Below are positions 22,894 to 46,027 of a stretch of 64,000 nt of DNA, piece by piece. The stretch lies in the NCBI GenBank assembly GCA_015063845.1, contig SVTJ01000010.1:9846-73845 (forward strand). The letters are read 5' to 3'. The notes below the pieces were generated by a model. That model had not been told where the DNA came from. It saw only the letters and a program-made list of their open reading frames with translations, and did no database searches. A program made the translations under genes and the position numbers. How positions within the stretch are numbered: position 1 is the first letter of the stretch; every line of letters starts with the position of its first letter. Source of the stretch: Oscillospiraceae bacterium (GTDB taxonomy: Bacteria; Bacillota; Clostridia; Oscillospirales; CAG-272).

Positions 22894-25212
22894 ATGAGCG
22901 AAAAGATCTTCGCCTTGCCAAAAGCTTGGCGGCTTTATATGGCGCCCAACAAAGAGGTGGTAAACTCAAGCATCGCCCCCACCACCGCAAAGGAGCTTGA
23001 GGGCATTGGATACCCCGCTATCCCCGCGACCGTACCGGGTTGCTTCGAGCTCGACCTTATTGCGGCAGGCCTTGCGCCCGACCCCTATTATTCTCAGAAT
23101 TGTTGGGAATTTCAAAAATATGAAAACAGACATCTGTGGTATACCACCAAGTTTTCATATGACGCAAAAGTAACTAAGGATACCTTTATCCGCTTTGAAG
23201 GCATAGATACTATCGCCGATGTCTATATAAACGGCAAGCTTCTCGGAAGAGTGAAGAATATGCTCATCTCTCACGAGTTTTGCGCCGACGGATTTTTAAA
23301 CAAGGGCGAGAACGAGATAGTAGTCCACATAATTCCCGTGACTATTTACGCAAGACGCTTCCCTCTCACGGGTAACACCATAGCGCAGAAATACAACGCT
23401 TCCGCTCTCCATATCCGCAAGGCGGCGTATATGTACGGCTGGGATATCATGCCTCGCTTTGTGTCTGGCGGCATTTGGAAGCCTGTCAGCATAGTTCAAA
23501 AGCCCGCCGAAAGACTTGACGAGGTATATCTTTACACTCAGGCGCTTTCAAGCAGCACCCCCGATGCTTACACTCGCGTTTTTTTCTCCTTTAACACCGA
23601 CGAGGACGACCTTTCCCAGTTCACCGTCGACGTAAGCGGAAAATGCGGAGATTCCGAATTCAAAAAGAGCTACACGCCTTGGCATACCTATGAGTCACAC
23701 AGAATAAGAGTTGTGAACGCAAAGCTCTGGTATCCGAGAAATGCAGGTGAGCAGAATCTTTATGACGTCACCGTGCGTCTTTTGAAAAACGGAGAGCTGT
23801 GCGACGAGAGAACGCTTAAGTTCGGTATAAGGACCGCTGAGCTTATCAGAACGTCCACCACCGACGAGAACGGCAACGGAGAATTTGTTTTTAAGATAAA
23901 CGGCAAAAAGATATTCTGTATGGGCACAAACTGGGTACCGCTCGATGCGTTCCCCTGCCGTCATAAGGACTATCTTGACCGCGGTCTTGAAATGCTCGAT
24001 GACCTCGGCTGCAATATGGTGCGCTGCTGGGGCGGAAACATCTACGAAGCGGACGAATTCTACGACTTCTGCGATGAGCACGGTATTCTTGTATGGCAGG
24101 ACTTCGGCATGGGCTGCGCCGTATATCCGCAGAGCGATGAGTTTGCCGCAAAGATCCGTGACGAGGCGATTTGCGTAGTAAAGAGACTTCGCAATCGCGC
24201 GTCTATCGTACTTTGGGCAGGCGACAACGAAAATGACCTTTTCGGTGGCAAGCTGATAGACCCCAACCAAAACAGACTTACTCGCGAGATACTGCCAAGA
24301 GTAATATACGAGCACGACCCCATAAGACCTTACATCCCCTCGTCTCCGTACGTTGACGAGGAGGCGTTTGCCACCAAGAAAAAGACCACCGAGGAGCATC
24401 TCTGGGGTCCTCGCGACTACTTCAAGGGCAATTTCTACAAAAACAGCGTTTGCCATTTCGCTTCGGAAACGGGATACCACGGCTGCCCCTCTCCCTCGTC
24501 GGTCAAGAGCTTTATCGCGCCCGACAAGGTTTGGCCGTTTACAGATGAGAGCGGCATTCCGAATGACGATTGGATATGTCACGCGGCAGAGATGCAAAAA
24601 GGCACTGACGGTCCTTACGCATACCGCATAAATCTTATGGCAAGTCAGGTAAAGACGCTCTTTGGGTCAATGCCCGACAGCTTCGACGACTTTGCAAAGC
24701 AGAGCCAGATATCTCAGGCAGAGGCAAAGAAGTATTTTATAGAGCGTTTCAGACTTTCCAAGTGGAGAAGAACTGGTATTCTTTGGTGGAACCTTATAGA
24801 CGGTTGGCCTCAGTTCTCCGATGCTATCGTTGACTGGTACGGCACAAAGAAGCTTGCATACCACTATATCAAGCGTTCGCAAGCACCCGTTTGCCTTATG
24901 TTTGACGAGCCGCACGACGGCGTTCTCGACCTCTATGCAGTGAACGACACCGCAAGCGACGCCCATCTGCGCTTCAAGGTAACAAATCTTTCCACGGGTG
25001 AGCAAATAGCCGCAGGAGAAGTAGATGCGCTTGCTGACAGCTCACTTATCGCTACGACTGTTACCACGCCCGAGAGCGGTATGCTCTATATTGAGTGGGA
25101 AGGAGACAAGAGCGGCCGCAACCACTACTCAACGCAAACGCTCGATATCTCCTACGAGCAGTATATCAAGGACATCACCGCAGTAGGCTTTGACGAGTTT
25201 GAAGGATTTTAA
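22894..25212 (+). CDS. GH2 beta-mannosidase-like glycosidase (no signal peptide)
   Basis: FEGIDT, RKAAYMYGWD, GTNWVP, RCWGG, WQDF, WAGDNEN, ASETG. Confidence 0.9.
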   Translation: MSEKIFALPKAWRLYMAPNKEVVNSSIAPTTAKELEGIGYPAIPATVPGCFELDLIAAGLAPDPYYSQNCWEFQKYENRHLWYTTKFSYDAKVTKDTFIRFEGIDTIADVYINGKLLGRVKNMLISHEFCADGFLNKGENEIVVHIIPVTIYARRFPLTGNTIAQKYNASALHIRKAAYMYGWDIMPRFVSGGIWKPVSIVQKPAERLDEVYLYTQALSSSTPDAYTRVFFSFNTDEDDLSQFTVDVSGKCGDSEFKKSYTPWHTYESHRIRVVNAKLWYPRNAGEQNLYDVTVRLLKNGELCDERTLKFGIRTAELIRTSTTDENGNGEFVFKINGKKIFCMGTNWVPLDAFPCRHKDYLDRGLEMLDDLGCNMVRCWGGNIYEADEFYDFCDEHGILVWQDFGMGCAVYPQSDEFAAKIRDEAICVVKRLRNRASIVLWAGDNENDLFGGKLIDPNQNRLTREILPRVIYEHDPIRPYIPSSPYVDEEAFATKKKTTEEHLWGPRDYFKGNFYKNSVCHFASETGYHGCPSPSSVKSFIAPDKVWPFTDESGIPNDDWICHAAEMQKGTDGPYAYRINLMASQVKTLFGSMPDSFDDFAKQSQISQAEAKKYFIERFRLSKWRRTGILWWNLIDGWPQFSDAIVDWYGTKKLAYHYIKRSQAPVCLMFDEPHDGVLDLYAVNDTASDAHLRFKVTNLSTGEQIAAGEVDALADSSLIATTVTTPESGMLYIEWEGDKSGRNHYSTQTLDISYEQYIKDITAVGFDEFEGF

Positions 25213-25223
25213 ATAACAAAAAA

Positions 25224-25253
25224 GAGGGGACTTTCTTAAAAGAAAGTCCCCTC
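25224..25253. repeat. Intergenic palindromic repeat copy 2 / bidirectional terminator
   Basis: GAGGGGACTTTCTT-AA-AAGAAAGTCCCCTC between convergent genes. Confidence 0.7.
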
Positions 25254-25262
25254 AAATTGTTT

Positions 25263-26429
25263 TTATACTTCACCAAACGCCTTGAGCGCTTCGTATGCGG
25301 TAAGAGCCATTGCCTTAGAGCCGTTATAGCTCGGGTGCAGATGGTCTCCGCTATCGAAATCAAGCGTCATATGGCGAGGCATATTGGGATCCTCTACCGA
25401 CTTTTCAAAATCGACGTATCCATCAGCCTCTGTATTTGTTCTTATCCACTCGTTAAGAGCGTCGAATCTCTCTATCTTGCCCTCGTACTGAGTCTCGAGC
25501 GGATAGCAAGGAAGAAGTGTCGCAAAGTATATCTTTATTCCGTACTCGTGCGCCTTTTTTACATAGTATCTATATCCCTCGATGACCTCCTCTGCGGTGG
25601 GCAGTTCATCAACACCGCTGAAGGGATTGTTGGGACGCGGATGCCACAGGTCGTTGATACCCTCAAGCACAACTACCGCGCTGACGCCCGCCGTCTTACA
25701 AACGTCCTGCTCAAATCTCTTTATACCCGCAGGACCGTACGTACGTTTCATAATGCAAGAATACTCTCGGAGCACTCTGTTTCCGCCGATGGCTCTGCGA
25801 ATGACCGCATGCTTGCCGTTTGCGTCTGTGTTGAGATGGCGGTTGACCATATCGGGCCAAGGACGAGCCGTTATAGAGTCGCCGAAGGCAACTATCGCGC
25901 TGTGGTCCTCGTCACAAAGAAAATCTATGGTGTTAAGGAAGAAGTAAGCACAGCCGTCCGCATACTTCTCAAGCGGTATCGACGCCGTATCCGTGTAATT
26001 TCCTCTTACATATATCTTCTGGATAAAGTTTCCACCGTTGGAGTGTCCCGTAGTTCTGTCGGTAGGCTTATCAAAATATATGCTGACGCATATTTTTTTG
26101 TCTGCCGTGACCTCAAAATCTATCTCATCACTTACCGCATCGACCTGATGCGCGCTCATAACGAGACGTCTGCCGCCTCCAAACGTAACGGGTGTTATGG
26201 TATTCGCCTCAACGTTGACCGCATCTATGTTCTGAGCAACAGATACTGCCGCTATCTCGACTGCCTCATTTCCCAAAAGATTGGAGAAGTGCAGTCTTAT
26301 TTTTTTTGTGTTCATCGTGGGAATAATGACGTAACGGCAGGTCGTGTTCTCTATCTTATCGGAAAGTCCGTAAGAGGTGTAAGACGTTGCCGCTCCCCAG
26401 CCTGCTACCCATTTTTTGTTTGCTTCCAT
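25263..26429 (-). CDS. SGNH/GDSL esterase (no signal peptide)
   Basis: FGDSIT, IGGN, LEGIND, DHLHP. Confidence 0.9.
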   Translation of the reverse strand: MEANKKWVAGWGAATSYTSYGLSDKIENTTCRYVIIPTMNTKKIRLHFSNLLGNEAVEIAAVSVAQNIDAVNVEANTITPVTFGGGRRLVMSAHQVDAVSDEIDFEVTADKKICVSIYFDKPTDRTTGHSNGGNFIQKIYVRGNYTDTASIPLEKYADGCAYFFLNTIDFLCDEDHSAIVAFGDSITARPWPDMVNRHLNTDANGKHAVIRRAIGGNRVLREYSCIMKRTYGPAGIKRFEQDVCKTAGVSAVVVLEGINDLWHPRPNNPFSGVDELPTAEEVIEGYRYYVKKAHEYGIKIYFATLLPCYPLETQYEGKIERFDALNEWIRTNTEADGYVDFEKSVEDPNMPRHMTLDFDSGDHLHPSYNGSKAMALTAYEALKAFGEV

Positions 26430-26443
26430 GTTTTGTTCCTCTT

Positions 26444-27742
26444 TTATTTTCCGAGCATTTCCTTAACGATAGGATCTATCAAGCCATTAATGATCTGCGC
26501 GTATCTGGTATATCCTTGATCGTCGGGGTGTAGGCCGTCGGGGTACACAATATCAAAGCTCTTTTGTGTTTCCTTAAACATATTGAGGTGATCAAGTCCA
26601 AGCTTTGTAGCAGCAGCCTTTTGATATCCGCGAATATACGTTGACATTGCGTCTTCAAAAGAATTATACGCTATAGGGCAGTTGAGAAGCGCAATTCTCA
26701 TATTGCCGTTCTTAGCCCTAAGATCGTTTACTATTTCTTCGCAGCTATCTATAAAGGTTTTCTTGTAAGAAGCCGTACCAAAATCATGGCCCGCCTTAGT
26801 TGCTCGTGCTTCATTCGAATCGTTAGTTCCAAGCATTATAAGCGCAAGGTCTATGTTAGGAGCATTGTTCATACAAGGCTGATAGTAATTGCATGCTGTC
26901 CATGCGTGGTTGGTTTCAGGTACACCGTCATTGTTTTCGTCCCATTTAAAATCAGTTATCATCGTTCTTCCGCCAAGACCGTAATTGTAAACGACCATAT
27001 CCTTCCAAGCAATTCTCTGAAGAACTGCGGGATAAGCGACGATATCACGACGAATGCTGTCGGAAACGGAAGACGTATAACCCGAAGGCTTGCTTCCGTT
27101 CGTAAGGCTATCGCCGATACAACCTACAACAAGCATATTGGCCTTTGCTCTTACGAGATATCCGGAGTTCACGTTCGCCTGCTCGGCGTTTTGCGCGAGA
27201 ACGTTGGCAATGAAGTCCTCTGCCGCGTGCCACGTAGCTCCGTAGCTGTTACCGCAAATGACTATCTTTCCGTTGTTTTCTCTGAAAACGTAGTCCTTGA
27301 CCGAGCTGAATGAGCTCAGCAATGTGTCAACAAGACCTCTGTTGGTAGAGCCGATAATTATCTCCTTATTGCCCTTCGGCTGCTCTTCGTCTCTTACCAC
27401 CTTGACGGTAGCGCCGAAGTGTGTCTTTATAAGCGCGGCGAGATTTTCAGCCGTCTGCTTATCATACTCGGTGTCCTGAGTTACAAGAGAAGGGTACTGC
27501 GCATAAACCGCTCTGTCGGGATTATACGCATAAACTATGGTGTACTCCGAAATATCAGTTCCTTTGATCTTAAGCGACGTAGGAATGATAGGGGGAGCTT
27601 CCTCCTCGGAAGGAGGAGTGGTATTATTATCCGTATTGCCGTCCGCAGGAGCATCGGTGACGGGTGCTTCCGTTTTATCGCAAGCAACCGCCATCGACAT
27701 TGCCATAACAAGGACAAGCATAAGTGCTATAAGCCTTTTCAT
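26444..27742 (-). CDS. SGNH esterase lipoprotein, paralog 3
   Basis: Lipobox AVA-C; shared N-terminal module; GDSLT, GLGG, MLGTND, DGLHP. Confidence 0.88.
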   Translation of the reverse strand: MKRLIALMLVLVMAMSMAVACDKTEAPVTDAPADGNTDNNTTPPSEEEAPPIIPTSLKIKGTDISEYTIVYAYNPDRAVYAQYPSLVTQDTEYDKQTAENLAALIKTHFGATVKVVRDEEQPKGNKEIIIGSTNRGLVDTLLSSFSSVKDYVFRENNGKIVICGNSYGATWHAAEDFIANVLAQNAEQANVNSGYLVRAKANMLVVGCIGDSLTNGSKPSGYTSSVSDSIRRDIVAYPAVLQRIAWKDMVVYNYGLGGRTMITDFKWDENNDGVPETNHAWTACNYYQPCMNNAPNIDLALIMLGTNDSNEARATKAGHDFGTASYKKTFIDSCEEIVNDLRAKNGNMRIALLNCPIAYNSFEDAMSTYIRGYQKAAATKLGLDHLNMFKETQKSFDIVYPDGLHPDDQGYTRYAQIINGLIDPIVKEMLGK

Positions 27743-27756
27743 AATCACTGCCTCTT

Positions 27757-29004
27757 TTATTTAGCGAGTATATCTTTTACTATGGGGGCGATCAGACCGT
27801 CAACGATCTGTGCGTACTTTGTATATCCCGTATCCGAGGGATGAAGTCCGTCGGGATAATCTGTACTCGTTGTCTTGTTCATCGTTTCCTTATACATATC
27901 AAGGTGGTGAAGTCCGAGCTTCTGAGCCGCTGCCTTCTGATAAGGACGGATATAAAGCATCATATCCGCCTCAAAAGAATGATAGGATACGGGACAGTTG
28001 AGCAACGCGATCTCCATATTAGAATTCTTTGCCTTGAGCTCGTTTACTATCTTTTCGCAGCTATTAATAAACGTATTCTTATAAGCTGTCGTTCCAAAAT
28101 TGTAGCCTGCATCCTTTGCGCGGCTAGAATTGGAGTCGTTTGTTCCAAGCATTATAAGCGCAAGGTCTATATTAGCCGCGTTATCCATACAAGGCTGATA
28201 GTATGTAGAAGAGGTCCAGCCGTGGTTACCCGAACCGTCGGTCCAAACGAAATTCTCTATCATAGTTCTTCCGCCCTGACCGTAGTTGTATACGACCATA
28301 TCCTTCCACTCGATACGCTGAAGCACTGCGGGATACGAAACTATCGCTCTGCGTGTGCTGTTGTCGGTTATGGTAGTACCCTTCGAGCCGCTTCCGTTTG
28401 TAATGCTATCGCCGATGCAACCGACAACTACCATTTTTGCCTTTGCTGACAAAGAATAGCCTGCTTTTACCTCAGCGACTGCCGCGTTCTGCGTGAGAAG
28501 ATCCGCTATAAAATCCTCTGCCGCGTGCCAAGTAGCTCCGTAGCTCTTTCCGCAAATTACTATTTTTCCACCGTTTTCCTTAACAGCGTAGTCCTTGACC
28601 GATGTAAACGAGCCAAGCGTTACGTCAACAAGACCTCTGTTGGTCATGCCGATAATTATCTCCTTATCGCCCTTTGCCTGCTCCTCGTCTCTTGCCACCT
28701 TAACGGTAGCGCCGAAATTAGTCTTTATGAGAGCGGCAAGGTTTTCAGCAGTCTGCTTATCGTACTCGGTATCCTGAGTTACAAGCTCGGGATACTGCGC
28801 ATAAAACGCTCTGTCGGGATTATACGCATAAACTATTGTATATTCGGAAATATCCACGCCGTTTATCTTAGCCGCGGTGGGGGTTATTGGGGCTTGCTCT
28901 TCCTCTGCCGCAGGAGCATCAGGCTGCGGAGCTTCGCTATCCGCGCATGCTACCAAAGCAAACGAGAGAATAAGCGCGAGCAATATAGAAACAATTTTTT
29001 TCAT
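27757..29004 (-). CDS. SGNH esterase lipoprotein, paralog 2
   Basis: Lipobox LVA-C; GDSIT, GQGG, MLGTND, DGLHP. Confidence 0.88.
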   Translation of the reverse strand: MKKIVSILLALILSFALVACADSEAPQPDAPAAEEEQAPITPTAAKINGVDISEYTIVYAYNPDRAFYAQYPELVTQDTEYDKQTAENLAALIKTNFGATVKVARDEEQAKGDKEIIIGMTNRGLVDVTLGSFTSVKDYAVKENGGKIVICGKSYGATWHAAEDFIADLLTQNAAVAEVKAGYSLSAKAKMVVVGCIGDSITNGSGSKGTTITDNSTRRAIVSYPAVLQRIEWKDMVVYNYGQGGRTMIENFVWTDGSGNHGWTSSTYYQPCMDNAANIDLALIMLGTNDSNSSRAKDAGYNFGTTAYKNTFINSCEKIVNELKAKNSNMEIALLNCPVSYHSFEADMMLYIRPYQKAAAQKLGLHHLDMYKETMNKTTSTDYPDGLHPSDTGYTKYAQIVDGLIAPIVKDILAK

Positions 29005-29020
29005 TGTGTTCTATCTCCTT

Positions 29021-30325
29021 TTATTGTTTGCCAAGCATTTGGTTCACGATAGGAGTTATCATGGAATAAACTCCCTCTGCGTACTTTGCATATCCCTCGT
29101 CCGTAGGATGAAGGTCGTCGGGATAATCTGACTTCTGTGTATTATTCTTTGTATATGTATACATATCAAGAAGGTCAAGACCCAACTGCTGAGCTGCCTT
29201 TGCCTGATACTTACGAATGTATCCTTCTGCGGTAGGCTCAATATTCGAGCTGAATGCTATCGGGCAATTGAGAAGAGCTACGCGAACGTTAGCATTCTTT
29301 GCCTTAAGCTCGTTAACGATGTTTTTACAGCTGTTTATAAATGCCTGCTCATAAGCTCCGCCGAGCTCAAACGTGTATCCTGCCGCGGTACTTCTGGTCT
29401 TACTCGAGTCGTTTGTTCCAAGCATTATAAGAACAAGGTCGAGATTCTTTGCATTTGCCATGCACTTATCGTGCTCTTCGGTCTTTATCCAAGCGCGGTC
29501 ACCATCGAGCTTGCCGTCGCTATTATCGTCCCAGCAGTGGTTCTCGGTCATAGTTCTTCCGCCCTTACCGTAGTTGTAAACGACCATATCCTTCCAAGCC
29601 ATTCTCTGGAGAACTGCGGGATAAGGAACGATATCCGATCTCATACCGCTGTCAACCTTAGATTCATAGTTCTTTGTGGATTTTGTTCCGAACGTAAGGC
29701 TATCGCCTATACAGCCAACAACGATAATATTTGCCTTTGCCTTAAAGGAATATCCGCTCTCTATGTTTACGTCGTTGCTCGACATACCCATACAAAGCTC
29801 AACAAACTTCTCGGCAGCCTGCCATGTAGCGCCGTAAGAAGCGCCTACAATAATGAGCTTGCCGTTCTTCTCCTGAATGCACATATCCTTATCGTTTGCC
29901 GCATTGTAAGCAGCAAGCGCCTGACCCTCAAGGCCTCTGGCTGTATTTCCTATAATTATTTCCTTGTCAGTTGCCGCCTTACCGTCGGTAACGATGCTGA
30001 GCTTTGCGCCGAAATTCTTCTCTATAAGCGCAGCGAGATTTTGTGCTGTCTGCTTATCGTATTCGGTATCCTGCTTTACAAGTCCCTTTGCACTGCTGTT
30101 AACAATGCTATACTTGTATGCATCTGGGTTCTTTGCGTACACGATCTTATATTCGGAAATGTCAACACCGTTGATCTTCAGCGTCTTCTGCTGTACGGGG
30201 GTCTCCTCATTGGTCGTGTCTCCGTTAGCCGCGGGGGCTTCGGGAGCGGGCGTCTCTGTGTTGTTACAAGCAACAAGAGAGAGCATGAATATAAGTGCGA
30301 GTATAAGCGCAATTATTTTTTTCAT
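29021..30325 (-). CDS. SGNH esterase lipoprotein, paralog 1
   Basis: Lipobox LVA-C; GDSLT, GKGG, MLGTND, DDLHP. Confidence 0.88.
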   Translation of the reverse strand: MKKIIALILALIFMLSLVACNNTETPAPEAPAANGDTTNEETPVQQKTLKINGVDISEYKIVYAKNPDAYKYSIVNSSAKGLVKQDTEYDKQTAQNLAALIEKNFGAKLSIVTDGKAATDKEIIIGNTARGLEGQALAAYNAANDKDMCIQEKNGKLIIVGASYGATWQAAEKFVELCMGMSSNDVNIESGYSFKAKANIIVVGCIGDSLTFGTKSTKNYESKVDSGMRSDIVPYPAVLQRMAWKDMVVYNYGKGGRTMTENHCWDDNSDGKLDGDRAWIKTEEHDKCMANAKNLDLVLIMLGTNDSSKTRSTAAGYTFELGGAYEQAFINSCKNIVNELKAKNANVRVALLNCPIAFSSNIEPTAEGYIRKYQAKAAQQLGLDLLDMYTYTKNNTQKSDYPDDLHPTDEGYAKYAEGVYSMITPIVNQMLGKQ

Positions 30326-30345
30326 TTGTTTTGCTTCTCCTAACA

Positions 30346-31683
30346 TTAAATATTAAAATTCAGGTCGAGCCTGTATACTCTTCTTGGATTTGTTTTGCCA
30401 CTGCAATTAAAGCCTGCATAAAAAGCTCCGTCGTACCAAAACACGTTTTCTATCTCGTACGTAAGTGCTATTGTAAACTGCTTTACAAGCGTTCCCGTGG
30501 TCTTATCGTAAACTCGGATCACGTTGTTTTTCAACGACCCCGCGGGAGACTGGGAATAGTAGATGTAAACGTCATCACAGTCAACTCCCTGCGCCGTATG
30601 GCCAACTCCGCCACCGTCAAGGCGCTTTATAAGTCTGAGATTTTCATCAAGTATCAAAAGACCGTATCCGTTGACCTTATAGTTGCTCTCCGCGCAAGAA
30701 TAAGTATTGGATATCGGATCATACGCGATACCGAAGCAACCGATAGTGTGATTCGTAATGGTTCCCGTTCCTGTAACGGCAAGCGACTTAGGGCTGACAA
30801 ACGACACGTTGAAGGTGTTTATCGAGCACCACGCCACCACAAAGCGGTCATGCTTTGAGTCATACGTCATATCATTCGCGTGAGCTACGCTGATTATCGG
30901 GCCTGTCTTTACGACCTCATTGGTCTTGGGATCCACCTTGACCACACGTGTCTGGTCATTCGCATTATCAGTTCCGTCTGTTATAAGAAAATAGAAATAT
31001 TCTCCATCGGTGCAGCCGCCCTGTATAAGTGTAAGCGTTTTTTGTGAGTCTCCGTCACGCTGAGCCTCTAACTCCTGTACCAATGTGGGAGTAAGCACAT
31101 CGGATACTACGTTCTCTCCGAGTGAAAGATAAAGAGCCGCAGAGGGCGTTCCCTTTTGCGAATAACTAAAGTTCTTATCAAGCGTGAACAGCTTTCCCGA
31201 GTCCTTGGCTCCTATACAGTTATCAATAAAATACAGTATACCCTCAAATACGTAGTCGTCGTTGTATCCCTTGATAACTATCTTAGTTCCCTTGGTGCTG
31301 ATTATGAATGATGTCTTGGGGCAGCTGATCTCGGCGGTTTCCGCTCTGTTGGTCTCTCCGAGCAATATCTCATAGTCCTCGTTTGTTGCCGCCGTGCCGT
31401 CATTTATCACACCGACCGTACAGCCCGTTTTTTCAGAAATAGCATTCTTTAGCTTTTCAGCAAACACACCGTACATTGCCTTTGCGTCCTTGGGATAGAC
31501 AATGGTGAACTGCGTAGTAAGAAGCTCAAAAGGATTTACCTGAGGTACATCTGCGCTCTCTTCTTGCTTGGGAGCGTCGCCCGTCGGCTCTGTTCCGTCT
31601 GCTTGTATCGTATCGTCCTTATCGCATGCCGCAAACGAAAGAAGCATCAACAATGCCAATATTAACGACAAAACTTTCTTCAT
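30346..31683 (-). CDS. Lipoprotein: shared N-terminal module plus putative beta-propeller domain
   Basis: Lipobox FAA-C; QGGCTDG, HANDMTYD, QGVDCD, EIEN. Confidence 0.8.
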   Translation of the reverse strand: MKKVLSLILALLMLLSFAACDKDDTIQADGTEPTGDAPKQEESADVPQVNPFELLTTQFTIVYPKDAKAMYGVFAEKLKNAISEKTGCTVGVINDGTAATNEDYEILLGETNRAETAEISCPKTSFIISTKGTKIVIKGYNDDYVFEGILYFIDNCIGAKDSGKLFTLDKNFSYSQKGTPSAALYLSLGENVVSDVLTPTLVQELEAQRDGDSQKTLTLIQGGCTDGEYFYFLITDGTDNANDQTRVVKVDPKTNEVVKTGPIISVAHANDMTYDSKHDRFVVAWCSINTFNVSFVSPKSLAVTGTGTITNHTIGCFGIAYDPISNTYSCAESNYKVNGYGLLILDENLRLIKRLDGGGVGHTAQGVDCDDVYIYYSQSPAGSLKNNVIRVYDKTTGTLVKQFTIALTYEIENVFWYDGAFYAGFNCSGKTNPRRVYRLDLNFNI

Positions 31684-31708
31684 ACGCAGTCCTCCTTATA
31701 AATCAATC

Positions 31709-33199: not shown

Positions 33200-33212
33200 T
33201 TTTGTTCCTCTT

Positions 33213-33968: not shown

Positions 33969-34070
33969 AATATTTTCCTCGTTAAAATTTTTGCTTTCTT
34001 TGTACAAAAGGGCAGCAAAAAACCGTTTCAGTTTTCTGCCGCCCTCCATTCTTTTTATATAAGAATTAAA

Positions 34071-35540: not shown

Positions 35541-35557
35541 ATTTTCCTCAAACCAAG

Positions 35558-37099: not shown

Positions 37100-37225
37100 T
37101 GTTTTTCCTCTCAAATAAATTTGAAATTCGGCATTTATGCCCCGCTTGAATATTCAGCCATGTAGCGAGCACCCAAAGCGGGGCAAAAACGTCAATTATT
37201 TGTTGAGCCTAATTAAAATTGTAAA

Positions 37226-39370: not shown

Positions 39371-39484
39371 TTTGGTGTTCTCCTTTTTTGTTGATTTATA
39401 TTCAAACTCCACGGCAATTCCGACCTTGCCGCAGAACCTAAATCAAGTTTTGGAAAGTGCGCCGTATCGGCGCGGTGGATATCC

Positions 39485-39513
39485 TCCCGCGCCTCGAAAG
39501 CGAGGCGCGGGAG
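39485..39513. terminator. Strong GC hairpin (terminator or mRNA stabiliser)
   Basis: CTCCCGCGCCTCG-AAAG-CGAGGCGCGGGAG; no clear minus-strand U tract. Confidence 0.45.
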
Positions 39514-39526
39514 TTGATTTTAGAAA

Positions 39527-40369
39527 TTACTTGACAATGAGCTGAGCGATGTAGTCAGTGCCTGCATCCCCATTGAATGCCGCGTAGAACGCGCCATCGT
39601 ACCAGAAAATACTTTCTATTTCGTCAACATTGTCAACGTAAAGCAGGCAAACTCGTTCACCACCCCAGGTATAGACCGTGATGATGTTCTTTGCCGCATT
39701 TGTTATTCCCGACTGGGAGTAATAGATATAGTGCGAGTCACAGAATATACCTTGCGCGGTATATCCAAGCCTTACGGTTTCAAACTCACTTGTGCAGGTC
39801 TTAAGCTCTCCGTCGTAGACCATCAGCGCAAAGTTATACTTTGACTGACCTGTCTTAGTAACGACGTATCTGTCTCCGATCTCGCTATAAGCCATACTGA
39901 AAAACGACTTGCTGAGAGTCTTCTGGGACACCGCGTTGAGCGTAGACGGATCTATGAGCGTATACGTAGTACCCATATGAATAGCGTAGAGATAGCCCGT
40001 GTTGGGGTTGTAGGTCAGATCGTTAGCGTGTCCCACGTTAACTATCGGGCCTATCATATCAACCGTCCATGTTTTGGGGTCTATTCTCACAACGCGTGTT
40101 TCATCGTCGTTTCCGTCGGTTTTGAGTGCGTAAACGTAGGTTCCGTCAGTGCAAGAGCCCTGAAGAGACTTCATTGCGCTTCCATCCGCCTGCGTATACT
40201 CACTGTCGACAAACGAGAACTTCGTATCGGTCGTCATATTGACTACCTTGAAGCTTGTCGTCTCGCCCGTTTCGCTGGGCTTCTGCGTGGTATTATCCCC
40301 CGTAGAATCCCAGTCGTAAACGGTAAATGTTTGTTCCTGCGTAGTTTGAGCTTGTGCTAATTCAGACAG
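39527..40369 (-). CDS. Putative beta-propeller domain; frame open up to the TGA of the upstream gene (first ATG at 40237)
   Basis: QGSCTDG, GHANDLTYN, QGIFCD, EIES; 44 sense codons lie between the TGA at 40370-40372 and the ATG. Confidence 0.7.
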   Translation of the reverse strand: MSELAQAQTTQEQTFTVYDWDSTGDNTTQKPSETGETTSFKVVNMTTDTKFSFVDSEYTQADGSAMKSLQGSCTDGTYVYALKTDGNDDETRVVRIDPKTWTVDMIGPIVNVGHANDLTYNPNTGYLYAIHMGTTYTLIDPSTLNAVSQKTLSKSFFSMAYSEIGDRYVVTKTGQSKYNFALMVYDGELKTCTSEFETVRLGYTAQGIFCDSHYIYYSQSGITNAAKNIITVYTWGGERVCLLYVDNVDEIESIFWYDGAFYAAFNGDAGTDYIAQLIVK

Positions 40370-43300
40370 TCATTGAGCAGAGGAGGTTACGATATCCTGT
40401 GCGCATGCTGCCGTTGCATCTATTGTGTAAACGTCAGTGTACTGAATGTGGCCACTGGTCGTCTTTACGTATGCAACTACGTAGAAGTCAACGTCGTTAA
40501 GGTAGTAGTCAGCCTTAAGGTTTGTCAGGTCAAGAACTGCAACAAGCTTGCCGTCCTCGGGAGACCAAGTTGTCTGGTCAGCCTGTCTAACCTTTGTGTA
40601 AAGCTTGTCGGTCGTGCTGGAGGGCGCGCCGTTCTCAACGATGTTCGCAGCAGTGTCAAGATCCTTTGCTATATAGAAGCCAACCTCTGCAAACTCGTCG
40701 TTACCTGCAACTGCCTCGTCAACTACGAAGAGAAGTCTGAGGTCTGTGGAGGTAGAATCGTCAGTTGTACCTGCCTTGATCTGGAAATACTTATCTGTAC
40801 CGAAGTGCTTATCGCCTACGAATACTGTCTGCTCGAAGCCTTCATTTGCAACTATGACCTCTGCCGTATAGTTCTTAACAACAGCCCAAACTGCCTCGGA
40901 AATGCCAAGCTTTGCGTAAGAATCGCTTACGTCGGTCGTGGGAGTCGTAATATTATCAGCGTTCTTGTTGAAGGTACCTCTCTGATATGAGAAAGAGGTA
41001 TCGGTTGAATCAAGGAAGTCATACTTATATGCTCTGATGTCGGTATCGGGAGCTATCCAAATACCGCCGAGTATATTATAGCTATTATTGGAGAATCTGC
41101 TGCTTGTGCTAACTGTAGGAGTTGTCTGAGAGTTCTTGTGTCCTACAATACCGTATCCGCTGGTTGTTTGTTCCGTAGTCTTAACGAATACACCGCCATA
41201 CACTTCCACGTTACCAAGATAACCGTTAGTATTAGAGGTACCTGCCGAGATAGCAGCTCCTGCACCAACTACGAACGTACCGCCGTAGATCTTGAGCGCT
41301 GTGCCATCCTGACCCGCATATGTAGCGGAAACTACAAACGTCTCAGCTGCGATGGTCGTTGCATATCCGTGTCTGATCATCTGAGCATTCTGGTGGGCGC
41401 TATCCATCGTGAATGTACCGCCGTAGATATTAACGTCACATCCGCGAGCCTCAAGAAGTATTTGCTCGCCGGAGTTCTTACGCATGAAGTCACCGCCGTA
41501 AATATTAACGTCAACCTCAAGTCCACGAAGAGTGATCAGCGTATCAGAAGATGTAGTGGTAAGGTTTCCGAACTTACCGCCATAAATGTTTATGTCGGTA
41601 TCGATCGTGTTGTTAGCCTCGGTATTGATATATATGGGTTTATTAGAGCCGGAGAAATCAGCGTCGTAAATATTGATATCAAACGTTCCGCCTGTAATAC
41701 CGGCTGTTGTGTTGAAGCCTGTTGTCGTCTTGAAAGTACCGCCATATACATTTGCGTTCACGGTTCCGCCCGTTATAGTCTTCATGAAATCGAATGCAGT
41801 CGTTCCATTGAACGTTCCGCCGTAGATGTTAGCCGTTGTCGTTCCCGCGGTCGTCGCATCGACAATGAGAAGACTCTTTGTTAAGTTAAACGTACCGTCA
41901 GATATGTCAGCCTTTACCGTTCCTCCGGTGCTTGCATTTACATAGATAAGGCTCTCGGTCAAGTTAAACGTACCGTTCTTTATGGTGATCTCTGTGCTAT
42001 CGCTGTTATCCTGCGCCTTAATATACGCAAACGTGGTAGCGTTAACCTCTCCGCCGTTGAACGTGAACTTTACGGGAGTGCTGTATGTATCTGCACCGTT
42101 GGTGTTGTACATAATGTACGTAGCCCTGAGAACAGAAGTACCGCTTACAGTAATGTTAGCAGCCTTTACAGGATAGTTACCGTTATCGATGTTATACATA
42201 AACATCTTAGAAGTGCCACCACTAAGCTCAACTGTACTGTTGTCTATCTTTATGTTTACTGTACGGGTGTTTTTAGACTGTCTGTTCGCAAACAGGACAC
42301 TCTCAGTAGTTATAACACTACTTCCGTTGAGAATGTTTATGTTATACGTAGACATGCTTCCAAAACTAGCTCCCTTCGTTCCCGAAGGTGCAAACATACC
42401 TCTGGTGTTCAAAGGAGAAGTATCTGTGGAAACATCCGTAGATGCGGTATTGGATACCGACATATAAGTGTTGTCAAGTGTTACCGTATAAGTTGCGGGG
42501 GGAGTAGCTCCCAGACCGATAAGGTTGTTGAAGAAGTCGTTTCTGACTGCTACGCTAGAGCTGTTAACGCCTACGGTCTGACCGAGGTTCATAACGTTCC
42601 TCGTGCCGTTAGCATCGGTAGTCTCGCAATCCTTAAGGTATACGTGCAAGCTCTTAGCCGTGTAGTAAAGCTTGGTACTGAAGAGCTTCGCAAGATCCTG
42701 ATACGTGTTGTCCGTTGTAGAGGTTGCGTGCAATCTCCAACCGTCAAGAGTAAGCTTGACGTCGGTCGTATTCTTGCTTGCATACACGAGGTAGTCAGGC
42801 TTGTTTGCCGTAAAGGTGTTGTTAGGCTTCATGGTAACGTCCAAAGAGGAGTTTGCTCCGGACGAATGAACAAGTCTCGCGGTTGTCTTTGAGCCTTCGT
42901 TTATAATAGTACAACCGTCGAAGGAAAGCTTAATGTTGTCATATTCACATCCAAAAGCCATAATATGCGACGCTGAACCGTGCTTTATAGTTGTGCCAAC
43001 AAAGCTAAGATCCATATGAGCATAGGTAGTTGTGGTCGAATCGGTTGAAGTTCCCCAAGTTCTTACAAGATACTGACCGGAAGCAGTTGCATCCATTTCT
43101 GAATTAGTTACTGTTCCCTTAAGTGTTGCATATATGCTCGAGCTTGAGAAGCCTTGTATATGGAACATCTGTGCGCCTGTGCTCTTGATATATACGTTGT
43201 CGAGATTAACCTCAACAGTTCCTGCTTTAGAAACTACGCCCTCAGAACTAGCTTGCGTAGTACTGTAGAACAGCTTTCCTGAGCCGGTCGACGTAAAGGA

Positions 43301-44209
43301 TGTTCTCTCGTCACCCGTTGCACCTACAGGGCTGGTCGCATTAACAACTACCTTACCGTTACCGCTGTTAAGGAACATAGCACCGTTGCCAACTGTAAGC
43401 TTAGAGCCGTTCGTTACGTTTACGTTAATAACAGTCGTAGCATTATTATTTATCAAGTTAGCAGCTCCGGTATTGATCGTAGCACCGTCAAAGTTTATGG
43501 TGTACTCTTTTCCCTTATAAGTAGCGTTAGGGGCAGCCCAACCCAAGATCCAGGACTTATCATCTTCCGTTCCTCTCTTGAAGCTACACTCACCCTTAAG
43601 GGTTACAGCTCTCGCTATTTCGCTTCTCATTGCGATCGCTGCTGCCGTGTATTTCGTTTCGCTTCCGTTCACATACTCAGGCATCGTTACATTCACGCCA
43701 TCAAGAGTAAGTGCACAGGCTCCACCCATACCGAACAGGGCATTGTTAGCGCCATGGGTATCAGCTACAACAAAATCTACGTTTTCGATCGTGAGATCGT
43801 CACCACCGCCTATCAAACACCAAGCACTCTTAAGAGTTCCTCCGGAAACGTTGATAGTAATTGTGGGATTTCCACTGGTAGCATCGTATGCCTTTATCGT
43901 GGCATTTGCTCTCCAGTTATCGGGAAGAGTTGCTGTCTCCACGATATCATTCAAAATGTAGATCGTGTAATAATCGTCATCATTATCCGTTCCCATTTTG
44001 TATTCGTTAAAAGCTGCCAAAAGCGTGGGGAAAAGCTTTCCGTCTGCTTCTGTGACACCGTCGGGGTATGCACTACCAATGTAAACAGCTATCTGATTGT
44101 CATCTTCAAAAGATGCAGCCGTAGCAGAGAATACACCCGTAGGGATCATGAGTGCGAGCATAACAAACGCAAGTGCAATGCTCAGTACTCTCTTAAATGA
44201 CTTTTTCAT
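40370..44209 (-). CDS. Large secreted Thr/Asn/Gly-rich beta-helix-like surface protein (1279 aa)
   Basis: GGAGG SD, Sec signal MKKSFKRVLSIALAFVMLALMIP...ATA-A, many (V/I)NIYGG(T/D/K)F repeats. Confidence 0.85.
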   Translation of the reverse strand: MKKSFKRVLSIALAFVMLALMIPTGVFSATAASFEDDNQIAVYIGSAYPDGVTEADGKLFPTLLAAFNEYKMGTDNDDDYYTIYILNDIVETATLPDNWRANATIKAYDATSGNPTITINVSGGTLKSAWCLIGGGDDLTIENVDFVVADTHGANNALFGMGGACALTLDGVNVTMPEYVNGSETKYTAAAIAMRSEIARAVTLKGECSFKRGTEDDKSWILGWAAPNATYKGKEYTINFDGATINTGAANLINNNATTVINVNVTNGSKLTVGNGAMFLNSGNGKVVVNATSPVGATGDERTSFTSTGSGKLFYSTTQASSEGVVSKAGTVEVNLDNVYIKSTGAQMFHIQGFSSSSIYATLKGTVTNSEMDATASGQYLVRTWGTSTDSTTTTYAHMDLSFVGTTIKHGSASHIMAFGCEYDNIKLSFDGCTIINEGSKTTARLVHSSGANSSLDVTMKPNNTFTANKPDYLVYASKNTTDVKLTLDGWRLHATSTTDNTYQDLAKLFSTKLYYTAKSLHVYLKDCETTDANGTRNVMNLGQTVGVNSSSVAVRNDFFNNLIGLGATPPATYTVTLDNTYMSVSNTASTDVSTDTSPLNTRGMFAPSGTKGASFGSMSTYNINILNGSSVITTESVLFANRQSKNTRTVNIKIDNSTVELSGGTSKMFMYNIDNGNYPVKAANITVSGTSVLRATYIMYNTNGADTYSTPVKFTFNGGEVNATTFAYIKAQDNSDSTEITIKNGTFNLTESLIYVNASTGGTVKADISDGTFNLTKSLLIVDATTAGTTTANIYGGTFNGTTAFDFMKTITGGTVNANVYGGTFKTTTGFNTTAGITGGTFDINIYDADFSGSNKPIYINTEANNTIDTDINIYGGKFGNLTTTSSDTLITLRGLEVDVNIYGGDFMRKNSGEQILLEARGCDVNIYGGTFTMDSAHQNAQMIRHGYATTIAAETFVVSATYAGQDGTALKIYGGTFVVGAGAAISAGTSNTNGYLGNVEVYGGVFVKTTEQTTSGYGIVGHKNSQTTPTVSTSSRFSNNSYNILGGIWIAPDTDIRAYKYDFLDSTDTSFSYQRGTFNKNADNITTPTTDVSDSYAKLGISEAVWAVVKNYTAEVIVANEGFEQTVFVGDKHFGTDKYFQIKAGTTDDSTSTDLRLLFVVDEAVAGNDEFAEVGFYIAKDLDTAANIVENGAPSSTTDKLYTKVRQADQTTWSPEDGKLVAVLDLTNLKADYYLNDVDFYVVAYVKTTSGHIQYTDVYTIDATAACAQDIVTSSAQ

Positions 44210-44223
44210 TTTTAAAGTCCTCC

Positions 44224-44722
44224 AAATTGTTTTTTTATTAGGAGTCACGTCTCGTTCCCCCCGCGAAACGCCGCCCGCTCCTCGGGCGTTAGCTTTTTCC
44301 GTCTCCAACCGCTATATATAATTATGTAGCGTTCAGACGGACGGGGACTCACGTCTTGTTCACGTGTTAAGGTTTGGATGGGAGAAGCACGTCCTTCCCC
44401 GACAGCGAAATATTATCTTTCGCTGTTCTTCCCTCTTTCAATCACTCGCAGCCGCTTAGTAAAAACACATTTCTACGCCGCCAAGCTCAACACAGGCTCT
44501 ACGCTCAGCCCGCTCTCGCTTATTTGCCGCTCCGTTATTTACTTTTAGGGATCTTTTGCGAAGGATGCTTCATCTTTGTTTAATATGACTCTTTTTCATC
44601 CTTGCCTTTGAGCTTCCATTAAACCTTCTGTAGAAGAAGGACGTACCTCTTCTATCTTCTGCCTTCTCGCCTCTTAAAACACTTGCGCGCTCCAAAAGGT
44701 AAGGTTTAACACGTTAACCTTG
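44224..44722 (-). ncRNA. Candidate large structured RNA / leader (about 500 nt)
   Basis: Nested long-range helices, including an 18-bp helix (44633-44650 with 44383-44400) whose four non-Watson-Crick positions are all G.U on the minus strand. Confidence 0.6.
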
Positions 44723-44726
44723 AAAT

Positions 44727-44873
44727 TTAGAGAATGTCAGATACGTCTAATTTTGCTCCTATCTCGTCCTGACCGATATTACCAGTCTCAAGACTGCTGT
44801 CAATAAGGGAAATCGCTATTTCTTCCGTGGTAAACTTGTCGAAGATTACCTCGGGAGTGCTGTATTCTTTCAT
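44727..44873 (-). CDS. Unannotated 48-aa acidic peptide with N-terminal YxxP motif
   Basis: AAGGAGG 7 nt before ATG; MKEYSTPEVIFDKFTTEEIAISLIDSSLETGNIGQDEIGAKLDVSDIL*. Confidence 0.75.
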   Translation of the reverse strand: MKEYSTPEVIFDKFTTEEIAISLIDSSLETGNIGQDEIGAKLDVSDIL

Positions 44874-45072
44874 TTCAGCGCCTCCTTAAGTTTTTTTATT
44901 AGCCTTACGCTCGGTGCGTATTCCGACCGCTTGACCTATATCTGTTCGCTCGCTCGCGCTTCGCGCTATACGTGCCGCTGGGTTAGGACGGCTCACGGGA
45001 GCATACATGCCCGCTTTCGTTTAGCTCTCTGCACTCACTTGCGTGAACATTCATTCTTTTGTAAAATAACTA

Positions 45073-45101
45073 TTGACATTTGCCTGCCGCTGTGTTATAA
45101 T
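45073..45101 (+). promoter_or_regulatory. Sigma-A promoter of AraC gene, overlapped by a CTGTGTT direct repeat
   Basis: TTGACA-17-TATAAT; CTGTGTT at 45090 and 45104. Confidence 0.75.
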
Positions 45102-45184
45102 AACTGTGTTTTCAAATACGTTTTGCTTGATTTTCGCACCTTTCACGGCGGAAATCTTATAATTTCCAATCATCGGAGGTTTTT

Positions 45185-46027
45185 ATGCACTTTCAATTCA
45201 GAAGCTTTCTCCCCGAGAACACCAACTTCCGCGCTATGCACAAAACCCAGATAAGCGCCGCGTCGCCCGACCACCACGACTATCATCCTCACTACGAGCT
45301 CTATTATTTCGATAAGTTCATAAAGCAGGATGTCGTTATAAACGGCCAACTTATTTGCGTGGACAAGCCTTGCGTTATCATAAGCGCGCCCTTCTCGATC
45401 CACGGAATGTCTCTCACGGATGCCACGACCACCGACTTCGAGCGTTACGTTCTCTACTTCGACGACCGCTTTCTCGCTTCTTTCAGCGACACTTTGCTGC
45501 CACTCAGCGTTTTTCATAAGTCGAGCAACTGCATATACCCGCTCACAAGGGAGCAAAATGAGACAGTCAAGCTCTTGTTCGAGCTGCTTCTCAGTGCCTC
45601 GGAGCACTACCCCGAATGTTGCGCTTATTTCGCCGCAATAGTAAACTCCGTCGTCCGTTTTGTGCCGCCCGAAAAGCGTATCACAAAGGGCTCTGCGAGC
45701 CATTACATAGTCGACGTGCTTAAATACATATATGAAAACAAAAACACGTCGGTCAACGCGGATACCATTTCAGAACAGTTCCACGTCAGCCGTGCAAAGC
45801 TCGACCGAGATTTCCGCAAATTCGTTGGACAATCAATACACAAAACGGTCATTGACTGCCGCCTCAACTACGCATCCGAGCTGCTTATCAGCACGGATAT
45901 GCAGATCCGAGAGATCGCTTCGATCTGCGGCTTTGAAAGCGAATACTATTTCTACGCATTTTTTAAAAGGAACACGGGAAAAACCCCATCAGCGGTCAGA
46001 AAGACCAAGACTTTTGGGCAAATGTAA
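45185..46027 (+). CDS. AraC-family regulator
   Basis: HYELYY cupin sensor; CGFESEYYFYAFFKRNTGKTPS HTH. Confidence 0.93.
   Translation: MHFQFRSFLPENTNFRAMHKTQISAASPDHHDYHPHYELYYFDKFIKQDVVINGQLICVDKPCVIISAPFSIHGMSLTDATTTDFERYVLYFDDRFLASFSDTLLPLSVFHKSSNCIYPLTREQNETVKLLFELLLSASEHYPECCAYFAAIVNSVVRFVPPEKRITKGSASHYIVDVLKYIYENKNTSVNADTISEQFHVSRAKLDRDFRKFVGQSIHKTVIDCRLNYASELLISTDMQIREIASICGFESEYYFYAFFKRNTGKTPSAVRKTKTFGQM

Follow-up and report, generated by a model that had tools for sequence, protein, structure and literature searches.

The 64,000-nucleotide stretch of DNA analysed here (the window) comes from an Oscillospiraceae bacterium (assembly GCA_015063845.1, contig SVTJ01000010.1, positions 9,846 to 73,845 of the forward strand) and holds, at 25263-44873, a run of 13 minus-strand genes covering 19.6 kb, set between a divergent AraC-family regulator gene and a convergent gene for a glycoside hydrolase of family 2 (GH2). 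Central to this locus is a domain for which no family model exists, here called X, which is predicted to fold as a five-bladed beta-propeller, carries a near-invariant site of six polar residues, and has homologs at the receptor-binding position of siphophage genomes. We tentatively read the run as an AraC-controlled operon for a surface apparatus that recognises and de-O-acylates a glycopolymer, served by a cytoplasmic enzyme set for the imported fragments, and we hold this reading with a little less than even confidence. In what follows, X236 is the 236-aa protein that consists of a single X domain, "giant" denotes the 1279-aa protein and "anchored" the 714/728-aa protein of the same run, and G000 is the window's own genome.

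The X propeller and its conserved site

The original prediction had built the locus around an unassigned domain, and this has been borne out. X is present in six copies in five proteins, which are 26-39% identical to X236 and 26-50% identical to one another, with 21 invariant columns; a whole-genome search places all the X copies of the 1.88-Mb genome in this locus and none elsewhere. Neither Pfam nor NCBIfam has a model for it, and Pfam yields only sub-threshold propeller matches. A word-indexed search with X236 returned five proteins, X236 included, and the X profile, run against 1.84 billion representatives at 50% identity, found 3,629 members at E <= 1e-3, 1,433 at E <= 1e-10 and 413 at E <= 1e-30. 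The family is taxonomically narrow: X was found in 35 of 201 genomes sampled from the bacterial family (G000 included; 34 of the 200 others), spread over 22 of 97 genera, and in none of 400 genomes from other families of the phylum at E <= 1e-5. Sixty of the 150 listed X members, mostly longer than 400 aa, were scanned with Pfam for partner domains, giving Flg_new (7), Big_2 (4), LRR_5 (3) and fn3 (3), together with SLH, cohesin plus dockerin, and GH20b (one each); GH20b aside, these are surface modules.

The propeller assignment, also part of the original prediction, is upheld by an AlphaFold2 model of X236 (66-sequence alignment; predicted local distance difference test, pLDDT, 94.9; predicted template-modelling score, pTM, 0.92) and by fold searches with it. 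As modelled, X is a five-bladed beta-propeller and not a new fold. Foldseek against the PDB gave papaya glutaminyl cyclase and the phi11 receptor-binding protein, both at a template-modelling (TM) score of 0.68, while VIA-align gave Xanthomonas glutaminyl cyclase 3mbr (Z 20.4; root-mean-square deviation, rmsd, 2.8 A; 205 residues aligned), glutaminyl cyclase 3nok (Z 19.5, rmsd 2.9 A, 203 aligned), the C-terminal domain of YjiK (3qqz; Z 19.4, rmsd 2.7 A, 206 aligned) and phi11 Gp45 (5efv; Z 18.9, rmsd 3.5 A, 225 aligned, 13% identity), followed by GH130 and GH43 at about Z 14-17; all the listed matches are five-bladed propellers. The glutaminyl cyclases of bacterial and plant type and the YjiK domain are thus the best solved-structure matches and share the fold, but X differs from them in sequence (7-10% identity), in its set of conserved residues, and in its surface and phage-tail contexts. 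Membership of the glutaminyl-cyclase family was considered and rejected: no such family appears among Pfam matches at E <= 10 for ten X domains, and none is listed by the X-family profile against the PDB. By sequence, X236 itself found nothing useful in the PDB, and the family profile gave only blade-level matches to NHL and YncE.

The six near-invariant polar residues are Q26, H70, N72, Q162, E206 and E208, which the secondary structure of the model puts on the first strand of blades 1, 2, 4 and 5 or immediately ahead of it. All six are kept in 63 of the 66 aligned domains, five are kept in two, and none in one. In the second repeat of the 496-aa protein (31712-32455, minus strand) they are replaced throughout (Q>R, H>K, N>T, Q>H, E>S, E>A); this repeat keeps the structural glycines and tyrosines and looks like a natural dead copy. 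Such all-or-none loss of the six residues argues for one functional site.

Phage counterparts of X

Predicted viral structures match X better than any solved structure does, and the best of them are phage tail-spike propellers: a gut-phage tail-spike protein and an uncharacterised myophage protein (TM 0.75, rmsd 2.4-2.9 A, E ~3e-11), with the neck appendage protein of GA-1 at TM 0.73. When IMG/VR was scanned for degenerate patterns using the family alignment, 11 loci came up that encode X homologs of 25-44% identity, usually as stand-alone proteins of 263-284 aa and once as a protein of 633 aa. Open reading frames were called in eight of these loci, and 37 proteins from six of them were scanned with PHROGs; tail and/or lysis neighbours lie beside the X homolog in five of the six, and the sixth (L059) showed only a neighbour of unknown function. 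The homolog comes after tape-measure, Dit, minor-tail or tail-fibre genes in L060, L063, L064 and L065, and before holin or endolysin genes in L062, L063 and L064. The slot behind the tail genes and ahead of the lysis genes is the usual place of the receptor-binding protein in siphophages of Gram-positive hosts. The six site residues are invariant across three X copies of the window and six of the phage proteins. A tblastn search of X236 against 50,697 deposited phage records gave no match, and PHROGs has no family for X (nor for the giant and anchored proteins, the solute-binding-like lipoprotein or the small peptide of the same run), so that the phage link is carried by uncultivated viral contigs and by structure.

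The platform propeller of phi11 Gp45 has in common with X that it is a compact five-bladed propeller, superposable on X, and that it belongs to a receptor-binding protein in the tail position which the X sequence homologs also hold. The phi11 structure paper describes this propeller as closest to glutaminyl cyclase, with a polar cavity the size of N-acetylglucosamine (GlcNAc) at the position of that enzyme's active site, and proposes that it holds the GlcNAc of wall teichoic acid; soaking with GlcNAc failed (PMC4901313). X differs in several respects: the copies in the window score at most 17.7 bits against Phage_RBD_prop (PF21311), whose cut-off is 23.7, and X is monomer-sized, lacks stem and tower, and comes either in fusion with a lipoprotein N-domain or by itself in the cytoplasm. 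Three of the 60 scanned X-family members do pass that cut-off (33.4, 31.2 and 24.1 bits), each over about one blade.

The original prediction supposed that depolymerisation at this locus might depend on new families. A central domain without a model is indeed there, but its fold is not new, and the presence of X homologs at the siphophage receptor-binding position favours recognition of a polymer of bacterial-surface type at least as much as a new depolymerase; X is as likely to be a recognition module as an enzyme. The same homologs, with the same site, lend substance to an explanation other than glycan use, in which the locus would maintain or edit the cell's own envelope or serve adhesion: X and the SGNH esterases would have as their target a glycopolymer of the bacterium's own wall (a polymer like teichoic acid, a wall polysaccharide or O-acetylated peptidoglycan) and the beta-helix proteins would be adhesins. 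On this account the known job of the family, contact with Gram-positive surface polymers, would be its job here, as the phi11 proposal also suggests. We consider the explanation somewhat unlikely, since four of the six X domains and one of the esterases have no export signal and since X, found in a minority of the family's genomes, is not a core envelope function; further evidence on both sides is given with the genes concerned.

Genes and signals of the locus

The gene map was built from an open reading frame listing with Pfam and NCBIfam scans, and lipoboxes, signal peptides and motifs were read by eye from the translations. The strands and the order agree with what had been predicted, namely about 20 kb of co-oriented genes behind a divergent AraC gene, running towards GH2. 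The features are as follows.

22894..25212, plus strand: GH2 glycosidase, 772 aa, no signal peptide, beta-mannosidase-like (Pfam Glyco_hydro_2_N2, E 1.3e-36)
25224..25253, both strands: 13-bp palindromic hairpin with T-runs on both strands, predicted terminator common to GH2 and the operon (terminator scan, both strands)
25263..26429, minus strand: predicted cytoplasmic two-domain esterase, 388 aa, with a carbohydrate-binding-module (CBM)-like N-domain and an SGNH domain, FjoAcXE-like (Lipase_GDSL_2, 63.9 bits against a cut-off of 32.9)
26444..30346, minus strand: three paralogous lipoproteins (434, 415 and 441 aa), each with lipobox, N-domain of about 130 aa and SGNH esterase domain (Lipase_GDSL_2, 60-72 bits)
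30346..31683, minus strand: lipoprotein, 445 aa, N-domain and one X propeller with the six-residue site intact (alignment to X236)
31709..33199, minus strand: signal-less protein, 496 aa, two X propellers, the second degenerate (alignment to X236)
33213..34049, minus strand: protein with a single X and no export signal, 278 aa in the gene listing, perhaps truly starting at the internal Met, residue 28 (alignment to X236)
34071..35540, minus strand: lipoprotein, 489 aa, N-domain and one X propeller (alignment to X236)
35558..37114, minus strand: solute-binding-protein (SBP)-like lipoprotein, 518 aa (language-model features)
37226..39412, minus strand: anchored surface protein, from signal peptide to C-terminal membrane anchor, likely start ATG at 39370 (AlphaFold2 model)
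39484..39513, minus strand: GC-rich 13-bp hairpin after X236, with no U-tract on the operon strand (terminator scan)
39527..40369, minus strand: X236, single propeller, ATG at 40237, plus 44 upstream in-frame sense codons (alignment, AlphaFold2 model)
40370..44209, minus strand: giant secreted protein, 1279 aa, GGxF-type repeats, presumed beta-helix, ending in a TGA in frame with X236 (translation)
44210..44726, minus strand: 517-nt leader separating the peptide and giant genes, strong predicted structure (minimum-free-energy folding)
44727..44873, minus strand: gene for a conserved acidic 48-aa peptide, with AAGGAGG ribosome site (profile search)
45185..46027, plus strand: divergent AraC-family regulator (HTH_18, E 7.7e-20; HTH_AraC)

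Read along the minus strand the order is therefore peptide, leader, giant, X236, anchored, the 518-aa lipoprotein, the X proteins of 489, 278, 496 and 445 aa, and the esterases of 441, 415, 434 and 388 aa. The arrangement is operon-like, with tight gaps (1-25 nt from the SBP-like gene through the last esterase), one strong bidirectional terminator, and the divergent AraC gene, whose promoter at 45073-45101 matches the consensus at 12 of 12 positions with an extended TG; the genes may be transcribed together. The run encodes six proteins with lipoboxes and two with signal peptides, whereas X236, the 278-aa and 496-aa proteins, the 388-aa esterase and GH2 have no export signal. The predicted division into outside and inside sets, lipoprotein or secreted against signal-less, is thus seen in the translations, and both the propeller and the esterase families have members of each kind. 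The flanks are housekeeping genes: DAHP synthase at one end, and mnmG, rsmG, parA and parB at the other.

All four SGNH proteins expected from the original prediction score above the curated cut-off of Lipase_GDSL_2 (PF13472; 60.2-72.3 bits), and blocks I, II, III and V (Ser, Gly, Asn and Asp-x-x-His) are intact in every one. The three lipoprotein esterases, with lipoboxes LVAC or AVAC and the motifs GDSL/GDSI, GGRTM, GTNDS (GxND) and DGLHP/DDLHP, are 51-67% identical to one another by tblastn. The 388-aa esterase (GDSI, IGGN, GIND, DHLHP) has no tblastn match to them at E <= 1e-3 and by sequence is to be placed in a different SGNH subfamily. Against the PDB it aligns with the FjoAcXE-like acetyl-xylan esterases 9kr0, 7toj and 7tog (E 7e-41 to 7e-33) over residues 3-376 of 388, hence over both domains, with chains of 386-403 aa. 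FjoAcXE is reported to be secreted and to have a CBM-like N-domain that packs against the SGNH domain, GNSI as its serine signature, and a DxLHP motif (PMC9105624). The 388-aa protein shares the two-domain build, the Ser/Gly/Asn/His blocks and the DxLHP motif, and differs in having GDSI in place of GNSI and in lacking a signal peptide. For the lipoprotein esterases the best named match is the C-terminus of the AxeA1 acetyl-xylan esterase (E 2e-17, far below the family cut-off); a PDB sequence search with one of them gave nothing useful, and they match PHROG families annotated as tail fibre (phrog_5240 "tail fiber protein", E 1e-12). This last likeness is a point for action on the cell's own wall, while an FjoAcXE-like esterase beside a beta-mannosidase-like GH2, typical of oligosaccharide catabolism, is one against it. 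Elsewhere in the window lie a SASA sialate-acetylesterase-type gene (4749-5504, plus strand) and a GxDLY/Lipase_GDSL_3-type gene (10846-11997, minus strand).

The N-domain of about 130 aa that precedes these enzymes is fused in G000 to SGNH (three times), X (twice), metallo-beta-lactamase (MBL)-fold (twice), alkaline phosphatase and EEP domains, at window positions 27-31.7 kb and 34.9-35.5 kb and at four other loci (L035, L039, L040 and L041). It gives sub-threshold hints of NAGLU_N (E 0.009) and GH20b (E 0.15), and one homolog reaches the GH20b cut-off. That X occupies a slot otherwise filled by ester hydrolases hints at catalysis by X, without showing it. A bolder explanation makes X a catalytic family of a new kind, working as a metal-assisted hydrolase, lyase or phosphodiesterase with a Q-H-N-Q-E-E centre and common to one family of gut Clostridia and to the receptor-binding proteins of its siphophages; the locus would then carry out an outside/inside depolymerisation of an O-acetylated glycopolymer of bacterial-surface type by means of beta-helix, propeller and SGNH phage-tail modules borne by the cell. 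We judge it unlikely.

The presence of a GH2 glycosidase, the only recognisable one in the original prediction, is confirmed. It matches CapGH2b (PDB 9nfe) at E 2.9e-151 over residues 35-769, in effect over its full length, the beta-mannosidases 5n6u and 2je8 at E 6e-94 to 5e-80, and BtMan2A-type beta-mannosidases at E ~1e-80. By sequence it is beta-mannosidase-like and close to a characterised beta-mannosidase, CapGH2b being reported as a redox-switched beta-mannosidase of subfamily GH2_13 from a mannan locus (PMC12770490). CapGH2b comes from another phylum, where according to the same source it sits in a Bacteroidales polysaccharide utilisation locus (PUL) with GH173 and GH5_57, whereas the window GH2 is convergent with the operon.

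For the solute-binding protein of the original prediction there is no more than a lead. Language-model features place the 518-aa lipoprotein at 0.99 to clusters in which only 10-32% of members carry SBP_bac_1 or SBP_bac_8; it has no Pfam or NCBIfam match at E <= 0.01, and no match in the PDB with either the single sequence or a three-sequence profile.

The original prediction had called the giant protein beta-helix-like; it is for the anchored protein that a model and its matches show this fold. Built with four paralogs from the same genome (pLDDT 70.7, pTM 0.75), the model runs from a signal peptide through a right-handed beta-helix (residues about 30-440), a second beta domain and an acidic linker to a C-terminal membrane anchor. 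All 50 chains listed by VIA for residues 30-440 are right-handed beta-helices (Z 16-24.9), led by the Vag8 passenger (Z 24.9, rmsd 3.1 A, 277 aligned) and including an alginate lyase (Z 22.2, rmsd 3.0 A, 268 aligned) and, down to Z 16 at rank 50, tailspikes, pectate lyases and a serine-rich repeat protein (SRRP) adhesin; Foldseek gave only E >= 0.01. The modelled fold is thus a right-handed beta-helix, shared with autotransporter passengers, phage tailspikes and pectate or alginate lyases, from which the anchored protein differs in having no Pfam Beta_helix match, no identifiable catalytic motif, and a membrane anchor at its C-terminus where autotransporters have a beta-barrel and tailspikes a phage head-binding domain. 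The family has five copies in G000 (the window and contigs 1, 8, 16 and 20; 28-65% identity by tblastn), one of the paralogs being fused to BspA-type leucine-rich repeats. Nearness to an autotransporter passenger, the match to an adhesin, and an expanded, species-specific family such as surface antigens often form all suit the envelope and adhesion explanation.

Since the beta-helix is also the tailspike fold, and X and the lipoprotein SGNH domain likewise have phage-tail counterparts, the cell-borne propellers and tail-fibre-type esterases might instead occupy or de-acetylate the cell's own receptor polymer, and so block adsorption of phages that carry the same modules. Their patchy, strain-level distribution is like that of defence islands, but the AraC regulator, the cytoplasmic copies and GH2 are left unexplained, and we think such receptor masking very improbable.

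For the giant protein a beta-helix is presumed from its repeats. It has no Pfam or NCBIfam family and no PDB match, and its GGxF-type repeats show weak similarity to the helix region of the anchored protein (E 0.026) and a better one (E 2e-6) to P0034, a natural 956-aa fusion of repeats with X at the C-terminus. Its TGA (40372-40370, then C) is in frame with X236 and is followed by 44 sense codons up to the X236 ATG (40238-40372, minus strand). The stop-to-stop frame of X236 comes to 280 codons, the size of the X236 homologs P0004 and P0005, whose N-terminal extensions the 44-codon linker resembles by eye; homology of the linker with the phage N-termini was unsupported by BLASTP. TGA is an ordinary stop in this genome, closing 13 of 45 inspected genes, and it is unchanged here in contigs of three covering runs, one of them from a different study and with other differences nearby, which makes an assembly error unlikely. 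No tRNA-Sec or suppressor was found among the 40 tRNAs of the incomplete genome, and no obvious hairpin follows the TGA. There are three readings: two genes, the start that X236 once had being gone; read-through at a low level, which would yield a fusion of beta-helix and propeller comparable to P0034; or early decay. A 1221-bp contig of a near-identical strain (run X7, record 20) matches 40304-40856 and stops below 40304, inside the linker that follows the TGA, which suggests strain-level rearrangement or divergence there.

The 48-aa peptide at the head of the run is, to judge from its sequence relatives, a real gene family. A three-sequence profile finds 17 proteins at E <= 0.01 among 21 candidates (the peptide and two other query peptides included), acidic, 44-66 aa long and without a family model, in which the N-terminal 23 residues hardly change and about 20 at the C-terminal end vary. 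In a 400-genome sample of the bacterial family only three other genomes match. For a 44-aa paralog (G000 contig 14, 40710-40844) and a 66-aa homolog (G016, L043, 1420-1617, minus strand) alike, the gene starts 10-12 nt beyond the end of one for a large secreted protein. The longest contigs of two peptide homologs have the same lengths as those of two X236 homologs (42,198 and 11,816 bp), a hint, short of proof, that two further organisms also carry peptide and propeller together. The conserved N-terminus bears a loose likeness to double-glycine leaders, and no processing-transporter gene lies near the peptide gene.

Between the peptide and giant genes the structured RNA of the original prediction is supported by folding: the 517-nt leader has a minimum free energy of -176 kcal/mol (z -6.5 against 100 shuffles), belongs to no Rfam family at gathering score (at E <= 10 there are only chance-level snoRNA and sRNA rows), and is unique in the genome. 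It has three short direct repeats in common with the region upstream of the peptide (44229-44241 / 44890-44902; 44508-44537 / 44948-44985 / 45009-45023 / 45085-45097), one of them an identical 13-mer just before the ribosome sites of both the peptide and giant genes.

Conservation and possible function

Co-conservation across relatives, which the original prediction had looked to, is not seen. The locus as a unit was found nowhere else, not even within the genus; X is present in one of three sampled same-genus genomes, as a weak match only, and the anchored family in none of 200 other genomes of the bacterial family at E <= 1e-5. By tblastn, X-type genes were found in 16 loci fetched from relatives, and Pfam was run on the neighbours in ten of the 11 that were prepared. 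Here the X-lipoprotein genes mostly sit singly among housekeeping genes, as in one genus where X lies between pyruvate kinase and dnaE, and among the 11 there were one SBP-like and one GHL10 neighbour. Scans of metagenome contigs with X236 and with the peptide profile confirmed nothing, and a scan of genome contigs gave one locus of 37% identity (L034). Near-identical DNA does occur in metagenome runs that several studies made from animal faeces and gut; the sequence is unchanged in contigs of run X6, from another study, and a near-identical strain is present in runs of a third.

A paralogous locus within the same genome gives the best argument that regulator, SBP-like protein, anchored helix and GH2 belong together. 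At 10.5-29 kb of contig 8 (L035) lie, in order, an N-domain-MBL lipoprotein gene, a divergent AraC gene, genes for two secreted proteins (one with MBL), an SBP-like lipoprotein, an anchored paralog, an FAD oxidoreductase, and lastly GH31 and GH2. Identities to the window are 44% for AraC, 22% for the SBP-like protein, 28% for the anchored beta-helix (tblastn) and 31% for the beta-mannosidase-type GH2, which here, unlike its counterpart in the window, is co-oriented with its locus. AraC control and the GH31/GH2 pair point to sugar use and are thus further points against action on the cell's own envelope.

The prediction of a Gram-positive utilisation or adhesion system for an O-acylated glycan accordingly stands in part: a surface locus with carbohydrate-type esterases, AraC and GH2 is there, and adjacent permeases are not, which leaves utilisation without a transporter. 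A Gram-positive PUL is defined by a regulator, a transporter and a glycan-degrading enzyme; the locus has the first (AraC) and carbohydrate-active enzymes (four SGNH proteins and GH2), without a complete transporter. Gram-positive PULs such as the Roseburia beta-mannan locus share with it a sugar-type regulator, an SBP-like lipoprotein, intracellular SGNH acetyl-esterases, a beta-mannosidase-type enzyme, and the split into outside and inside proteins. The window locus differs in having no permeases or ATPase and no recognisable endo-glycanase, in its lack of conservation across relatives, in that half of its genes carry a domain without a model, and in its two large surface proteins of beta-helix type. 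Elsewhere in the genome (L058, contig 14, 25-37.5 kb) there is a cluster encoding a 763-aa protein without a family, a Yip1/NHL/TPR protein, a DUF5696 protein and two pairs of BPD_transp_1 permeases, four in all. The peptide paralog is about 3 kb away, and no binding protein adjoins the second permease pair. That pair is a possible partner of the orphan SBP-like lipoproteins.

If the run is an operon for glycopolymer recognition and de-O-acylation, the secreted giant protein and the tail-anchored beta-helix protein would form a long-reach binding or cutting surface, and six lipoproteins (one SBP-like, three N-domain-SGNH esterases and two N-domain-X propellers) would be tethered to the membrane. 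The six polar residues of X would together form a single pocket at the centre, where a sugar or sugar-phosphate unit would be bound and might also be cut. Fragments would enter through a transporter encoded elsewhere, and inside the cell the signal-less X proteins, the FjoAcXE-like esterase and perhaps GH2 would finish the imported oligosaccharides. The substrate may be a polymer of bacterial-surface type or a beta-mannoside-containing dietary or host glycan: the relatives of the esterases and GH2 indicate hemicellulose or mannoside-type sugars, and X, the beta-helix and the lipoprotein SGNH domain, through their counterparts in phages, indicate bacterial surface polymers.

Several observations weigh against this reading, beyond the failure of locus, X and anchored family to recur together in relatives and the housekeeping settings of the X-lipoprotein genes. 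Scans of 22-46 kb with Pfam and NCBIfam found no ABC permease or ATPase gene in or beside the locus, and no endo-glycanase is recognisable in it. GH2, being on the opposite strand, may be unrelated to the operon, and the GC-rich hairpin after X236, with no U-tract, makes either one or two transcripts possible. The three X proteins without export signals fit poorly with a purely surface-recognition role. The solute-binding identity of the 518-aa lipoprotein is a lead, not an assignment, and a word-indexed homolog search with the giant protein found only itself among 8000 scored candidates. The missing transporter and the housekeeping neighbours, such as pyk and dnaE, would suit an X and esterases that tend the cell's own wall.

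Others of these observations would fit an absence of any common pathway, the run being an assembly of fast-evolving, duplicated surface and accessory genes brought onto one strand by tandem duplication. Local paralogy is heavy (the three lipoprotein esterases and the six X copies), the giant and anchored proteins are orphans, same-genus genomes do not conserve the locus, and the degenerate X repeat and the in-frame stop between two genes suggest ongoing decay. Tight spacing and a single strong terminator count against this, as do the recurrence of the architecture at a second locus with different enzyme heads, catalytic motifs intact in four of four esterases and the site intact in five of six X copies, and a sequence that holds unchanged in run X6 and nearly so in the strain of the third study. 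We find this explanation quite improbable.

Under the preferred reading, an AraC-controlled surface apparatus for an O-acylated glycopolymer, the kind of system is a known one, a Gram-positive glycan locus with a surface-protein operon, in which the esterases, GH2 and the regulator are ordinary family members. What is new is a large, narrow propeller family without a model, sixfold here, with a six-residue site and homologs at the phage receptor-binding position (no claim is made that it is undescribed in print), as well as the combination of X with beta-helix proteins and tail-fibre-type esterases, and the conserved peptide. Should the reading fail, the locus would be one more lineage-specific cluster of surface proteins and esterases. 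If it is true, a large, unnamed and taxonomically narrow family would gain a fold, a candidate binding or active site, and a link to phage receptor recognition, and its members would be candidates for a new carbohydrate-binding or carbohydrate-active family. They would in turn offer a handle on the surface polymers bound by the phages of uncultured gut Clostridia, and on the enzymes or lectins that the cells themselves direct at those polymers.

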